Shown here in pieces: positions 22,497 to 57,222 of a stretch of DNA of 57,222 nt. Under the pieces are notes generated by a model, which was given only the letters and a program-made list of their open reading frames with translations, was not told the origin of the DNA and searched no databases. The stretch comes from Candidatus Nealsonbacteria bacterium (GTDB lineage Bacteria > Patescibacteriota > Minisyncoccia > Minisyncoccales > GWA2-38-27), in contig JAUWWC010000003.1 of the NCBI GenBank assembly GCA_030617105.1, positions 1-57,222 on the forward strand, read 5' to 3'. Position numbers and translations under genes: made by a program. Positions within the stretch are counted from its first letter, which is position 1. Every line of letters starts with the position of its first letter.

Positions 22497-24013
22497 TTAC
22501 ATCTTTTCTGGGCTGGAAAGACCCATTAAATCTAAAGTATTTTTAAGAATGCTTTGAGTTGCCAAAATCAAAGATAATCTGGCTTGGCTTAATTCTTTAT
22601 CTTCAGTAAGAACTCTGCAGTTTTTATAAAACTTATGAAAACTCTCAGCTAAATCAATAGCATATTGCGGTATTCTCTGAACCTGATAATCTTTTGCAGT
22701 GTCTTCAATAATTTCTGGAAACCTAATCAACTGCTTAATCAAATCTAATTCGCTTGAATGATTTAGCAATTTTGAATTTTGAATTTTGAATTTTGAATTT
22801 GTTTGTAATTTGGAATTTGTTATTTGGGATTTCTTAAGTATGTTGCATATTCTTGCATAAGCGTACTGTACATAATAAACAGGGTTTTTCTGTGACTTTT
22901 CTTTAGCTAAACTTAAATCAAAATTCAAATGACTCCCCGAATTTCTTGTTAAAAAGAAAAACCGAGCAACATCCAATCCAACTTCATCAATTAATTCTTC
23001 CAGGGTTATATAAGTACCTGTTCTTTTGGACATCCTGACCTGCTTGCCTTTTTCAAAAAGCCGAACCATTTGCATAATAATAAAATCTACCTGTTCTTTC
23101 TTATAACCCAAAGCTTTAACCACGGCTTTCATTCTTCCTATATATCCATAATGATCAGCTCCCCAAAAGAAAACTAACTTGTCAAAACCTCTTTTAAATT
23201 TATTCTTTAAATAAGCAATATCAGAAGAAAAATAAGTTTTCTCGCCATCTGCTTTTACTAATACCCTATCCTTATCATCTCCAAACTTGCTTGATTTAAA
23301 CCACAAAGCCCCTTCTTTTTCATAAGCTAATTTTTTCTTTTTCAGCCAATTCAAGATTTTATCAACTTCCTTGCTTTTATACAAACTATTTTCAGAAAAC
23401 CAAACATCAAACTTAATTTTTAGTTTTTTTGTAATTATTTTTTGGTTTTCTTTTTGAATTTGCAAAGCTGTTCTCTTCTCGCCTTTGTAAAGGCCTTTTT
23501 TCAAATCTTCTACTTGTTTACCACGATCGTTAACATAAAACTCGCGAAATACATTATATCCTGCTTTTTCTAAAACATTTGACAAAACATCTCCGCAAAA
23601 CCCTCCACGTCCATTTCCCAAAGTCAAAGGACCAGTAGGATTTGCTGAAATAAATTCAACATTTATTTTTTGCCTTTCCCTATTTTCAAATCTCCAAACT
23701 TCTCTTTTTCTTTCAAAATGTTCCCTACTTGCTTTTGCAAATACTTTCTTGAAACAAAAAAATTAATAAAACCCGGCTTAACAACTTCGACTTTGTCGAG
23801 GAATTTCGAATTTCGAATTTCGAATTTCGAATTTATTAAATTGGCTATCTTCATTGGATCTTCTTTTCCAATTACCATCGCCACATTCGTGGCATAATCC
23901 CCGTGTGTTTTTTCTCTTGGTTCCTCAACCAAAACTCCAGAAACCTTAAATCCAAGTTCCTTTATCGCTTTTTCTACTAATTTTCTAATATCATCCCTAA
24001 TCATTATTTCCAT
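22497..24013 (-). CDS. argS: Arginine-tRNA ligase, split by a 1-nt frameshift in an A6 run at 23666-23671
   Basis: 5' ORF has HGDYATNVA and PGFINF; the -1 frame continues INVEFISANPTGPLTLGNGRG...MSKR...YVQYAYAR...PEKM. Confidence 0.93.
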
Positions 24014-24067
24014 CTTACCCTATTTTCTTCAAAAATTCAAAAAACAGAGGCCCGTCCTCCGCAAAAG

Positions 24068-24144
24068 CTTGACAGATTTGAGAATATGCGATAAACTGTA
24101 AATATCGTGAAAAACTAAAATAGCAACTTAAAAATTTGAAAGGA
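24068..24144 (+). repeat. Promoter/leader direct repeat, family 1, copy 1
   Basis: 76/77 identical to 25022-25098; contains TTGACA-17-TAAACT and GAAAGGA. Confidence 0.95.
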
Positions 24145-24155
24145 GGTGCTTTACA

Positions 24156-24428
24156 ATGAATATTGTTCTTTATATCATCGCATTCGTTGTTATCCTTATC
24201 GTTTCTGTTTTGATAAATTCATGGGAGTACGGAAGTACGCGCAACCGACTTCTTGAACAAATCAAAAATAGTTACCAAGAATATAATGTCACTTCCGAAA
24301 CTTTCCATAATAACGACTATGTCTATGGTACTCGGTTTATCGCCACCTTAGTGAAAAAAAATGACCCAAATTGCAGAATTAATGTTGTCAACAGCAACGA
24401 TACAGGAATAAAGGAAATTTCTTTGTGA
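24156..24428 (+). CDS. Hypothetical protein with N-terminal TM helix
   Basis: AGGAGG SD; own promoter; hairpin after the stop. Confidence 0.75.
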   Translation: MNIVLYIIAFVVILIVSVLINSWEYGSTRNRLLEQIKNSYQEYNVTSETFHNNDYVYGTRFIATLVKKNDPNCRINVVNSNDTGIKEISL

Positions 24429-24434
24429 AATAAA

Positions 24435-24530
24435 GTGCCGAGAACAGTTCTCGGCACATTTTTTATTGCAGAAAATACTACGAGAACTGTTCTCGTAGTG
24501 ATTAAAATGGAAGAGAACTGTCCTCTTCCA
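24435..24530. repeat. Three 23-bp palindromes with core GAGAAC-W-GTYCTC
   Basis: 24435-24457, 24477-24499 and 24508-24530; outer arms differ but stay complementary. Confidence 0.9.
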
Positions 24531-24531
24531 A

Positions 24532-24750
24532 TTATTTTTTCTTAAAATCTTCTTCTGTTAATTGTGCCTGATGTAAAATAGATTTAAAAGTTCCATAAGG
24601 AATCTCTTTCTTGTTAGCAGGAACTATAACTGTTAAAATCTTCTTTCCAAATTTACGAAATTTTACATGACTGCCTTTTTGAGATATATAAACAAAGCCC
24701 TTCTTTTGAAGGACTTTAATAATTTCAGTAGATGAATAAAGCTTAGGCAT
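24532..24750 (-). CDS. hicA: HicA family toxin
   Basis: GF...QKGSH.K, VP...KEI..GT..SIL.QA. Confidence 0.93.
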   Translation of the reverse strand: MPKLYSSTEIIKVLQKKGFVYISQKGSHVKFRKFGKKILTVIVPANKKEIPYGTFKSILHQAQLTEEDFKKK

Positions 24751-24961
24751 GATTGAGAGATAAAGTAACTAATTCTGGTCTCTCAACTTTAGGCAAATGA
24801 ACTATTTTCTCATTTTCAAAGTATAATTCCAAAGCTTCATCCAAATTATCTAAAGCTTCTTTTTTGGTCTTGCCGAAACTAGATACATCAACATTAAGAC
24901 ATTGGGCAACATAATACTTGCCTTCTTTCCAAACTACATTTTTTAAGTTTATTTTACGCAT
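24743..24961 (-). CDS. hicB: HicB family antitoxin, short form without a DNA-binding domain
   Basis: YVA.C......S.GKT..EAL.NL.EALELY. Confidence 0.92.
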   Translation of the reverse strand: MRKINLKNVVWKEGKYYVAQCLNVDVSSFGKTKKEALDNLDEALELYFENEKIVHLPKVERPELVTLSLNHA

Positions 24962-25021
24962 ATATTATTTATTACTAACTATTTTAATTTTATCAAAACC
25001 CAAGAAATAAGTCAATAAAAA

Positions 25022-25098
25022 CTTGACAGATTTGAGAATATGCGATAAACTGTAAATATCGTGAAAAACTAAAATAGCAACTTTAAAATTTGAAAGGA
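25022..25098 (+). repeat. Promoter/leader direct repeat, family 1, copy 2
   Basis: 76/77 identical to 24068-24144. Confidence 0.95.
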
Positions 25099-25103
25099 AA
25101 GAA

Positions 25104-25343
25104 ATGATGATTGAAGAACTTTACAAAATATCAAAAGTATTGTTTATGGGTTCATTCCCTACCGCGCTTGGGAGGATTGGGGTTGTTTGGCTTCTTTCCT
25201 GCTGGATTGTATGGATTATTGTATCAATAAGATACAAAAATCTAACGATTTCTACTACTGTGGGTCTGATTGGTGTCATAGGTTTTATCTCAGCAGTGCT
25301 AATATCTGTGTATATCAATCAGCCATTTACGTGGAAAACCTAA
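25104..25343 (+). CDS. Small hypothetical membrane protein
   Basis: Two hydrophobic helices; AAAGGA SD; terminator downstream. Confidence 0.7.
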   Translation: MMIEELYKISKVLFMGSFPTALGRIGVVWLLSCWIVWIIVSIRYKNLTISTTVGLIGVIGFISAVLISVYINQPFTWKT

Positions 25344-25367
25344 ATTGAAAATCAGGAACAAATCTTC

Positions 25368-25398
25368 GAAGGCATCAAAATTGATGCCTTCTTTTTTT
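25368..25398 (+). terminator. Intrinsic terminator
   Basis: gaaggcatcaa-aa-ttgatgccttc followed by T7. Confidence 0.8.
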
Positions 25399-25422
25399 AT
25401 TGAATTATGATAATATAAAGTA

Positions 25423-25872
25423 ATGAAAATCTTAGCTGAAAATAGAAAAGCGAGGTTTGATTATGAAATCCTGGAAAGGTTTGAAGCAGGCATGGTTTTG
25501 ATTGGCCAAGAAGTCAAATCAATAAAATCAGGAAGAATGAGTTTAAAAGGCTCTTATGTGACGCTAAGAGGAGAAGAGCCGTATTTAGTCGGAGCTAATA
25601 TCCCTGCTTATCAGCCAAAGAACATTTCTCCGGATTATGAGCCAGAGAAACCAAGAAAGCTTCTTCTGAATAAATCAGAAATTAAGCATTTAATCGGTAA
25701 AACAAAGGAAAAGGGCTTGACTTTAGTGCCCTTAAAAGTGTATACTAAGAAAGGAAAAATAAAGCTTGGGTTTGGAATAGGAAAAGGAAGAAAGAAAGCT
25801 GATAAAAGAGAATTAATTAAAAAAAGAGAAACAGAAAGAGAAATAGACAGAGAATTAAAATCACGGGGATGA
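25423..25872 (+). CDS. smpB: SsrA-binding protein
   Basis: NRKARFDY, EAG.VL.GQEVKS, RKLLL and DKRE motifs. Confidence 0.97.
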   Translation: MKILAENRKARFDYEILERFEAGMVLIGQEVKSIKSGRMSLKGSYVTLRGEEPYLVGANIPAYQPKNISPDYEPEKPRKLLLNKSEIKHLIGKTKEKGLTLVPLKVYTKKGKIKLGFGIGKGRKKADKRELIKKRETEREIDRELKSRG

Positions 25873-31878: not shown

Positions 31879-32607
31879 TTAAAAAAGCAAGTTCTGTAAG
31901 GTTTTTGCGTTTTCAACTGCGTGGCCAAGGGCGTCGTTATTGAAGTATACAAAAACGTCTCTATTTTGTTTTTGCCATTTTTTTATCTTTTTGGCAAGAG
32001 TTTCTAATTCTTTTTTAGTATATTTTGAAGAGAATAAAACTTTAGAGCCATGCATTCTAATATAGACAAAATCAGCAGTCAGTTCCTCGGCTTTAGGATA
32101 AGAAGGAGAATCAGCAATTACCCAGGCAGCATTGTATTTTTTTAATAAATTATAAATCTTTTGCTTGCACCAAGTCTCATGCCTGAATTCAAAAGCAACA
32201 GAGACCGGGTCTCTGATAAACTTTAAAAACTTTTCTAATCTTTTAATATTCTCATCACTTGCTTTAAAATTCGGAGGAAACTGAAATAAAATTGGACCAA
32301 GTTTTTCTTTAAGATTTAAAGCGTTCTTAATAAATACTTTCCAGGCAGCATTAACACCCTTTAATCTTTTAATATGAGTAATAAAACGGCTGGCTTTGAC
32401 AGAGAATAAAAAATCCCCAGGAGTCTGGGAATACCAATCCTTATAAATAGCTGGTTTTGGCAAACGATAAAAAGAATAGTTTACTTCAGTAGTTTTAAAA
32501 TGCTGAGAAAAGTATTTTAATTTATATTTAGAACTTAAGCTTTTAGGATAAAAAACTTGTTCCCAATGAGGATAAACCCAACCAGATGTACCAATATATA
32601 TTGCCAT
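31879..32607 (-). CDS. DUF72 family protein
   Basis: IGTSGW.Y..W, EVN.SFY, LFQFPP, EFRH..W, YIRMHG and YFNND motifs. Confidence 0.93.
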   Translation of the reverse strand: MAIYIGTSGWVYPHWEQVFYPKSLSSKYKLKYFSQHFKTTEVNYSFYRLPKPAIYKDWYSQTPGDFLFSVKASRFITHIKRLKGVNAAWKVFIKNALNLKEKLGPILFQFPPNFKASDENIKRLEKFLKFIRDPVSVAFEFRHETWCKQKIYNLLKKYNAAWVIADSPSYPKAEELTADFVYIRMHGSKVLFSSKYTKKELETLAKKIKKWQKQNRDVFVYFNNDALGHAVENAKTLQNLLF

Positions 32608-33796: not shown

Positions 33797-33976
33797 ATTT
33801 TTGCCTCCTTTATTTCATTTTAGTTTTTTTAAATAATGTGTCAATAGCTGTTTAATAAAACTAACTAATATAGGTTTTTTAGTTTACTTTTTAAAGTTTT
33901 CCACAAGTATATATTATTGTATTCCAGCCAACTGTTTTGTCAAGAGCCAAGCACTGTGGAAAACTCATGCAAAACA

Positions 33977-34000
33977 AAAACTTAGCCGGGCTAAGTTTTT
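33977..34000. terminator. Hairpin or terminator
   Basis: aaaaacttagc-cgg-gctaagttttt. Confidence 0.7.
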
Positions 34001-57178: not shown

Positions 57179-57222
57179 CTTTTTTGCGTTAAGCCTGGCT
57201 TAACGCAATATATCATTTGTTA

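Follow-up and report, generated by a model that had tools for sequence, protein, structure and literature searches.

In a Candidatus Nealsonbacteria genome, three 23-bp palindromes stand side by side in the short space between two convergent genes. The question is what kind of element these palindromes are, and what they do at this site. The window, by which we mean the whole analysed stretch of 57,222 nucleotides, is contig C9 of the genome's assembly (542,946 bp in 17 contigs, 33-36% G+C). Labels of the form G###, C# and L### denote genomes, contigs and loci, respectively.

Three palindromes with a common core

The palindromes and their neighbours are arranged as follows.

24156..24428, + strand: orphan ORF, 90 aa, hydrophobic N-terminus; stop codon 6 nt before hairpin 1
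24435..24457, no strand assigned: hairpin 1, GTGCCGAGAACAGTTCTCGGCAC, composed of GTGCC-GAGAA-CAG-TTCTC-GGCAC; candidate REP-like palindrome with perfect 11-bp arms
24458..24476: AT-rich spacer of 19 nt, ATTTTTTATTGCAGAAAAT
24477..24499, no strand assigned: hairpin 2, ACTACGAGAACTGTTCTCGTAGT, composed of ACTAC-GAGAA-CTG-TTCTC-GTAGT; the canonical form of the family
24500..24507: AT-rich gap of 8 nt between hairpins 2 and 3
24508..24530, no strand assigned: hairpin 3, TGGAAGAGAACTGTCCTCTTCCA, composed of TGGAA-GAGAAC-T-GTCCTC-TTCCA; one arm mismatch
24532..24750, - strand: hicA toxin gene, 72 aa; PF07927 HicA_toxin, E 1.2e-17, 64 bits against a cut-off of 27
24743..24961, - strand: partner gene in the HicB position, 72 aa, overlapping the hicA start; PF24113 DUF7387, 29.2 bits against a cut-off of 27.9

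Together the hairpins fill the 103 bp that separate the convergent stop codons of the orphan ORF and hicA, and hairpin 3 ends 1 nt short of the hicA stop codon. Set within their outer arms, the cores of hairpins 1, 2 and 3 read GTGCC-GAGAACAGTTCTC-GGCAC, ACTAC-GAGAACTGTTCTC-GTAGT and TGGAA-GAGAACTGTCCTC-TTCCA. A single central base lies between the perfect 11-bp arms of hairpins 1 and 2. The mismatch of hairpin 3 is inside the core, and because A.C on the + strand becomes G.U on the - strand, this hairpin folds with 8 pairs on the former and 10 on the latter.

A sequence-only reading of the window had described three 23-bp palindromes with AT-rich gaps of 19 and 8 bp and a shared core, whose outer 5 bp differ but stay complementary. 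The sequence confirms both parts of this description: the outer 5 bp are wholly different among the three hairpins, yet complementary within each of them. The number of cores is also far from what shuffling gives. With at most one mismatch allowed, the core occurs three times in the window, compared to a mean of 0.11 (standard deviation 0.35, maximum 2) in 100 dinucleotide shuffles of the window, none of which reached three. For the 126-nt hairpin region, folding z-scores were -6.9 (RNA, + strand), -7.5 (RNA, - strand) and -8.6 (DNA), with 200 shuffles each. An 886-nt contig from a separate assembly of a public run covers 24166-25051 with no differences; that run may be the window's source sample.

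We considered whether hairpins 1 and 2 could pair into one long REPIN-like hairpin. This arrangement was rejected, as the arms are just 83% complementary and the folds keep three separate hairpins. A scan of 23900-25500 with Rfam, by E-value, gave no match near its gathering score, the best being AaHKsRNA41 (30.9 bits against 97).

The argS-smpB interval

The hairpins lie in the interval between argS and smpB, whose content differs among relatives. It is empty in G016, holds one small ORF each in G002 and G005, and in G001 contains a hicA-like gene together with a TGGAA-type hairpin. In the window, the position of the partner gene (24743-24961) suggests that it encodes the antitoxin of hicA. 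The 90-aa orphan ORF matched no Pfam or PADLOC family, and none of the four small proteins nearby had a meaningful PADLOC match.

Several other features of this region were observed in passing. At 24044-24062, in the same variable interval and just upstream of the argS start, the - strand carries another terminator-like hairpin, GCGGAGGACGGGCCTCTGT, followed by a T-run. In its GAGGAC..GGCCTC stem it is similar to hairpins that belong to other RAYT-like paralogues (L100, L103 and L118). A perfect hairpin with a 10-bp stem and a T7 tail occurs at 25368-25391, 30 nt upstream of smpB, and probably terminates a 79-aa orphan ORF at 25104-25343. In run X1, a contig at about twice this genome's depth joins a hairpin-1-like region (24467) to the smpB start (25423), with 27 other letters between them. 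Its probable source is a related strain without the hicBA block, in which a similar hairpin stands immediately upstream of smpB.

The argS gene itself, on the - strand, is split at 23655-23675 into ORFs of 116 and 376 aa by a frameshift at the A-run GGCAAAAAATAAATG. In two other runs, contigs from related organisms have one extra base at this A-run, which would restore the frame, and a contig break is seen at 23663 in the probable source run. The frameshift could be a homopolymer error of sequencing or assembly, or else a real slippery site. Within the part that encodes the N-terminal domain of ArgS (23755-23896, peptide SKFEIRNSKF), summed contig depth in other metagenomes rises to as much as 6227, compared to about 10-100 nearby. 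This stretch is a short GAAATTCGAAATTC-type repeat within coding sequence that is common to many organisms, and similar repeats fill a loop of RNase HII in G030 and a loop of prepilin peptidase in G000.

Copies in the genome and its relatives

The sequence-only reading had proposed a pattern search, and had named absence of the motif elsewhere and from relatives as the outcome that would speak against it. The search found the motif in both places. This genome has four family copies in all, and the exact GAGAACNGTTCTC core has 128 sites in 16 of 41 genomes (this one and 40 relatives), against 5 sites for a reversed control. The number of copies reaches 13 in G001, 11 in G005, 10 in G013, 12 in G020 and 20 in G176, while the control pattern has 0-1. 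Sampled more widely across the class, the core was present in 19 of 201 genomes, just 4 of which have at least four copies, and single core hits were about as frequent as control hits. With 128 sites near home and few across the class, the family is therefore patchy and is concentrated in the window's own family.

The fourth copy in this genome (C5:71019-71048) is inside the rnhB ORF. Its 30 nt are the reverse complement of hairpin 3 plus TTTTAAT, and are read as GRGQFSS in the RNase HII frame. The 23-mer of hairpin 3 is also found in the rnhB gene of G002 (L127). Two one-mismatch cores elsewhere in this genome, at C16:949 and C17:32072, lack paired arms and were treated as chance occurrences.

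The exact 23-mer of hairpin 2 (23/23) occurs on both flanks of a RAYT-like gene in G001:C7 (L038, positions 962 and 1713) and inside a RAYT ORF in G005:C8 (L058/L096). Further exact copies are present in G016 (L010), G001:C1 (L013), the pth gene of G001 (L042) and G005:C4 (L059). The exact 23-mer of hairpin 1 was not found among the relatives' loci examined, but its TGCC/GGCA arms and GAGAA/TTCTC stem are seen in three hairpins of the RAYT-like gene of G019:C80 (L097), and arms and stem of this type also occur in G039 and G013 copies.

Dispersed copies are mostly bare hairpins of 21-25 bp or inverted doublets, and the bases at their centre vary freely. The doublets, of which there are many among the relatives (G001, G005, G013 and G037), have their two members 23-26 bp apart, resulting in a palindrome of 46-49 bp that resembles REPINs. 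All 46 cores of G019 belong to GAGAAC doublets, 23 in total, which lie within a MITE-like repeat of about 250 bp with its own terminal repeats (L015, L018-L030), many of them at contig ends. Since these cores ride in the MITE-like repeat, their amplification need not be driven by a RAYT. The same repeat carries a second inverted-repeat module, CATTGCGAGG...GAAGCAATC / GATTGCTTC...CTCGCAATG, and TGTAAGAA-type terminal repeats.

Other palindrome families were noticed during this search. A sister hairpin family, ACAGAGACCNGGTCTCTG, has about 10 copies in this genome, whereas the general pattern gives 2 hits when the reversed genome is used as a control, and its stem flanks RAYT-like genes in G015 and G001 (L120 and L117). 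The family TTGCGTTAAGCCWGGCTTAACGCAA has about 15 copies in this genome, several of them less than 100 bp from contig ends, and it therefore probably breaks the assembly. A further family, AAAACTTAGCCSGGCTAAGTTTT, has about 5 copies. Sites of these last two families are found in the window at 57184-57208 and 33976-34000, and on contigs C1, C7, C8, C10, C12, C14 and C15.

Association with RAYT-like genes

The suggestion that the hairpins are REP-like, and that a RAYT (HUH) gene should be looked for, proved apt as regards the relatives. There, the same hairpins flank a Y1/HUH RAYT-like gene and also sit inside it; in this genome they do not. Across the same 41 genomes, matches to Pfam Y1_Tnp (PF01797) above the cut-off coincide with motif positions. 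In G001:C7 (which belongs to the same genus), G005:C8 and G013:C19, a gene of 232-234 aa has one hairpin 13-29 nt upstream, another 1-13 nt downstream and a third inside the gene, at codon 54-63. The internal hairpin is read as YENSSRS in G001 and G005 and as NREQFSD in G013, so what is conserved is the DNA and not the peptide.

This layout is general. The counts that follow rest on simple heuristics of our own for calling genes and hairpins, and the related genomes are not independent samples. Among 25 RAYT-like ORFs in relatives, a hairpin with perfect arms of at least 7 bp (imperfect hairpins being missed) is present upstream in 19, downstream in 19, on both sides in 15 and internally in 13. 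The RAYT-like family numbers at least 565 loci. We also collected 80 loci from across the Patescibacteria, using species-representative genomes with titles such as Candidatus Nealsonbacteria, Patescibacteria group, Paceibacterota and similar. By the same perfect-arm rule, at least one hairpin is present in 68 of these loci, both flanking hairpins in 34 and all three hairpins in 20, with a sequence specific to each gene. The hairpins that flank a given gene have the same sequence on both sides.

Hairpin sequence and protein similarity go together. All 10 rows (8 of 8 distinct loci) whose protein is at least 67% identical to that of G001:C7 have three hairpins with the GAGAA core, one upstream, one inside and one downstream. 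Among more distant rows, the exact core occurs in L098 only (55% identity), and a few have a related GAGACC stem. Across these sequences, then, the hairpin stem is seen to track the enzyme clade. No RAYT-like gene examined has the TGGAA sub-type (hairpin 3) as its cognate hairpin. A candidate in G005:C2, which has a TGGAA-type hairpin next to it, was ruled out, given that its internal and downstream hairpins differ in sequence.

In most of the RAYT-like loci (L095-L124 and L150-L229; for example L095, L096 and L098), we observed a copy of the gene's own hairpin at about codon 55-65. This site is a hypervariable linker rich in Lys and Arg, and the frame in which the hairpin is read differs between genera. 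The linker is absent from the paralogue on contig C16 of this genome. Two of the 80 loci (L179 and L198) come from records titled as DPANN archaea (Nanoarchaeota and Aenigmatarchaeota), and in one of the two the set of three hairpins is complete; they could reflect mis-binning or transfer between episymbiont lineages.

An alignment of 19 sequences, A1, has an invariant H85-x-H87 and an invariant Y145, the putative catalytic tyrosine. The A1 profile matches ISDra2 TnpA (2xma, E 1.8e-5) and E. coli TnpArep (4er8, E 1.5e-3), while a PDB search with a single RAYT-like protein gave no significant match. Four RAYT-like proteins were compared to NCBIfam. All score below threshold for REP_Tyr_transpos (NF047646), at 36-69 bits against a cut-off of 80 bits, but this is the only NCBIfam family matched by three of the four, and IS200 reaches E 7e-4 in one protein only. 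No tnpB partner was found in the ORF lists of the RAYT-like loci inspected. A genome has 0-6 RAYT-like paralogues, which are divergent (40-50% identity) and not duplicates; in G001, identities are 100, 50, 42 and 40%.

In this genome, neither tblastn with the G001:C7 protein nor a genome search found a cognate RAYT gene in an assembly that is 96% complete and in which several contigs end in palindromic repeats. The sole match is a RAYT-like gene of 27% identity (C16:7183-7851) that has no flanking hairpins.

Mobility and pairing of the arms

Comparison of orthologous sites in congeneric genomes shows whole hairpins that are present in one genome and missing from another. Between G001 (L013) and the corresponding site in G000 (C12), a 27-nt indel equals one whole hairpin. 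A doublet in G001 (L031) has no counterpart at the orthologous site in G000 C1, and at one further site a GAGAAC doublet in G001 is replaced in G000 by a different palindrome, TTGCGTTAAGCCTGGCTTAACGCAA. Likewise, the orthologous G000 site lacks the entire RAYT-like gene of G001:C7 together with its hairpins. Such differences in whole hairpins point to movement, although they are ambiguous as to gain or loss.

The arms outside the core remain paired despite variation in their sequence. At offsets 1-5, pairing is found in 81, 76, 77, 67 and 52% of 79 copies, respectively, compared to 41, 39, 34, 28 and 29% in shuffles, and exceeds all 500 shuffles at each of these offsets, although the shared ancestry of the relatives means that the statistic overstates independence. 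Among the 33 copies that are paired at all four positions, 10 different 4-mers occur. The proposal that selection acts on hairpin structure is borne out by this pairing, which is far above that of shuffles while the sequence varies.

Copies inside coding sequences

The three copies in the window are themselves extragenic, but this is not typical of the family. ORFs of 110 aa or more contain 40 of 79 cores, 34 of them at a distance of more than 100 nt from either ORF end. The rule behind these numbers, which takes the longest such ORF, is crude: one host ORF (L035) is probably spurious, and the 46 cores of G019 and three sites of G039 were left out. Host genes recognised with Pfam encode prepilin peptidase, peptidyl-tRNA hydrolase (pth), enolase, a Mur ligase, a radical-SAM enzyme, TatD, UvrC, FemAB and RNase HII. 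None of the frames of the stem contains a stop codon, and its three readings are ENxS, RTVL and E(Q)FS.

The RNase HII gene provides an example. Across 18 aligned relatives, the loop from VVAAAV to KDSKKL is 12-50 residues long, and at least six cases (G000/G002, G013, G001, G010, G005 and G012) have different palindromes there.

In this genome, copies of the sister family ACAGAGACCNGGTCTCTG were observed in two genes. One, a GAGACC hairpin at 643-655 in folD, is read as GRDLVSE, and the other, at 32201-32213 in a DUF72 gene, is read as IRDPVSV. In folD the hairpin presumably replaces residues, with no obvious insertion relative to what we take to be a typical FolD; not every intragenic copy alters the length of the protein.

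Predicted signals of transcription termination

A stem followed by a T-tail, as in a terminator, is recognised on both strands for hairpin 1, on the - strand for hairpin 2 and on both strands for hairpin 3. On the + strand, a T-run directly follows hairpin 1, and the spacer at 24458-24476 provides two hairpins with T-tails, hairpin 1 for the + strand and hairpin 2 for the - strand. Within the surrounding 1.6 kb there are 9 terminator-pattern sites, compared to 0.7 expected. An RNA run from the same sample yielded no contig that matches this stretch. As each hairpin has a T-rich tail on at least one strand, and the gap between convergent stop codons is filled, the hairpins are most likely bidirectional terminators, or stabilisers of 3′ ends, for the orphan ORF and hicBA today. 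This assignment is predicted from sequence.

Probable REP-like elements of a RAYT-like system

We regard it as likely that the palindromes are REP-like elements of a Patescibacteria-wide REP/RAYT-like system that have been orphaned here and that probably double as bidirectional terminators. Under this explanation, each clade of RAYT-like Y1 (HUH) transposases would have its own hairpin, and the GAGAA-NNN-TTCTC stem would be the signature of one clade. The 4-5 bp outside the stem vary by lineage but remain paired. If the enzymes act as characterised RAYT and IS200/IS605 Y1 enzymes do, they would recognise the hairpin in single-stranded form, cut it and copy it to new sites. At this locus, three sub-types would have come to lie side by side in the variable argS-smpB interval, which also gathers toxin-antitoxin and orphan genes. 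As the cognate RAYT gene is not in the assembly, the copies are likely to be relics that no longer move, or else to be served in trans. Given that this genome has just 4 copies and no RAYT-like gene of the GAGAA clade, the REP status of the copies in the window rests on the relatives.

Three main properties expected of a REP/RAYT system were found: a dispersed palindrome, the same palindrome on the flanks of a Y1/HUH gene (in relatives), and presence/absence polymorphism. Four others are lacking or blurred: a location outside genes, a RAYT in single copy, a guide tetranucleotide that is unpaired, and a protein score at the curated RAYT level. The overall interpretation in the sequence-only reading therefore holds in part. 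Its REP-like option and its selection on structure are supported; its attC sites, cassette scars and triple operator are not, as the palindromes are 23 bp long, nearly perfect and found singly in many unrelated contexts, including coding sequence.

Alternative explanations

The best of the alternatives, though an unlikely one, is that the hairpins are ends or derivatives (solo ends, PATE- or MITE-like) of an autonomous IS200/IS605-type insertion sequence, and not REPs of a domesticated RAYT. A hairpin-gene-hairpin unit would then move as a whole and leave hairpins behind. Such a unit would fit the hairpins that bracket a transposase-like gene on both sides, the several RAYT-like paralogues per genome, the absence of the entire G001:C7 gene and its hairpins from the orthologous G000 site, the G019 doublet that rides in a MITE-like element, and the higher score of the A1 profile for ISDra2 TnpA than for E. 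coli TnpArep. However, the paralogues within a genome are only 40-50% identical, with no near-identical copies among them, and the flanking hairpins are identical where an insertion sequence would have distinct left and right ends. Moreover, the NCBIfam matches are to the REP-associated family in three of four proteins, with IS200 at E 7e-4 in one only, and the prevalence of bare 21-25-bp hairpins and inverted doublets among dispersed copies is REP/REPIN-like.

It is less probable still that the hairpins are nothing but ordinary intrinsic terminators. In that case, local duplication followed by compensatory drift would have produced the cluster, and the likeness to hairpins elsewhere would reflect a favoured terminator stem and not mobility. 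Tight linkage of the hairpins with one RAYT clade, whole-hairpin indels at orthologous sites and the rarity of the reversed control pattern all disagree with this idea, as does the recurrence of exact 23-mers in further genera and within coding sequences, in which termination would be harmful. Its merits are that all three hairpins fit the pattern of a hairpin with a T-tail and are located exactly between convergent stop codons, and that many other hairpins of this genome are terminators composed of an A-run, a stem and a T-run.

We see very little chance that the palindromes form a triple operator, with three sites for a dimeric regulator (HicB or another) that reads the duplex palindrome GAGAACNGTTCTC. 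Three copies of a 13-bp palindromic core beside a toxin-antitoxin pair do resemble an operator array, but these are at the 3′ ends of both neighbouring operons and not at a promoter, and about half of the family copies are inside unrelated housekeeping genes. In addition, the centre bases vary freely and pairing extends beyond the core with variable sequence, which a protein that reads duplex DNA would not need.

Equally improbable are attC-type recombination sites, or cassette scars, of an integron-like system: the variable argS-smpB interval, with small orphan and toxin-antitoxin genes, is reminiscent of a cassette array, but the hairpins are nearly perfect at 23 bp, whereas attC palindromes are longer and imperfect and have extrahelical bases; copies of the family are found within genes and surrounding a Y1 transposase gene rather than between cassettes; and the search for an IntI gene proposed on the sequence alone gave a single tyrosine recombinase gene (PF00589) in this genome.

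Comparison with known systems

The closest known counterparts are the REPs and REPINs of Escherichia and Pseudomonas with their RAYTs. There, as here, copies of a short palindrome are scattered through the genome and also border a Y1/HUH transposase-like gene, which is itself not amplified. Two inverted copies can pair into a single long hairpin, and repeats cluster, often at the 3′ ends of genes. According to excerpts of one study (PMC5581495), RAYTs are typically found in single copy, and REPINs are almost always seen at the flanks of RAYT genes. In excerpts of another (PMC6006769), a REP is described as a short hairpin with a guide tetranucleotide 5′ of the hairpin foot. The Patescibacteria repeats differ from these in being only 21-25 bp long and nearly perfect, with a centre of 1-3 nt. 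The main class has the form CTAC...GTAG, in which these bases are paired in the stem and no unpaired 5′ tetranucleotide is evident, and hairpins 1 and 3 have no GTAG. About half of the copies are intragenic, in contrast to classical REPs. A genome of about 0.6 Mb can have as many as 6 divergent RAYT-like paralogues with a separate hairpin for each, where classical RAYTs are single-copy. A third hairpin is located inside the RAYT ORF, and the proteins are below the NCBIfam equivalog cut-off.

The IS200/IS605 elements also combine a Y1 HUH transposase with subterminal hairpins, and the profile of our family matches ISDra2 TnpA. They differ in that here there are no near-identical gene copies within a genome and the hairpins on both flanks are identical.

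Palindromic DNA in frame inside protein-coding genes of a reduced genome is reminiscent of the Rickettsia palindromic elements (RPEs). The RPEs, of about 100-150 bp, are selfish palindromic DNA found in frame in coding genes and tolerated in surface loops; we know of no transposase dedicated to them. By contrast, the present elements are 23 or about 46 bp long (23-49 bp) and have a linked Y1 gene.

Finally, a GC-containing stem and a T-run between convergent genes are likewise found in intrinsic (Rho-independent) terminators and in REP/BIME clusters that act as terminators or mRNA stabilisers. In the present case the terminator role is predicted, and the stem sequence differs from that of ordinary terminators in being common to several genera and to intragenic copies.

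Implications

CPR genomes are usually regarded as stripped of repeats. To our knowledge, REP/RAYT systems have been studied almost only in Proteobacteria, with repeats that are extragenic by definition and a transposase in single copy. Among the best matches in the literature searched, as far as their accessible text goes, we found no description that links REP/RAYT systems with Patescibacteria. The same REP/RAYT logic would extend to CPR genomes of about 0.5-0.8 Mb, with three new traits: one hairpin type per RAYT-like paralogue, a hairpin conserved inside the RAYT reading frame, and frequent in-frame copies in housekeeping genes.

In annotation, care is needed not to label such hairpins as operators, attC sites or sRNAs. 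If confirmed, the system would help to account for breaks in assemblies and for unusual loop insertions in the proteins of CPR bacteria. It would also be a tractable one in which to study how Y1 enzymes choose their hairpins, because the stem co-varies with the enzyme clade.

A more ambitious reading joins these observations, and we offer it tentatively, as something that could well be wrong when taken as a whole. The Patescibacteria elements may be a distinct, undescribed branch of REP/RAYT systems that is built on a three-hairpin unit and writes in frame into essential genes, with the cluster in the window as a domesticated terminator remnant. On this same tentative reading, the hairpin inside the Lys/Arg-rich linker of the RAYT ORF would be a cis element, involved in autoregulation or forming part of the DNA substrate, and the in-frame hairpins of 21-25 bp would keep supplying loop variation to bacterial genomes that are among the smallest known.
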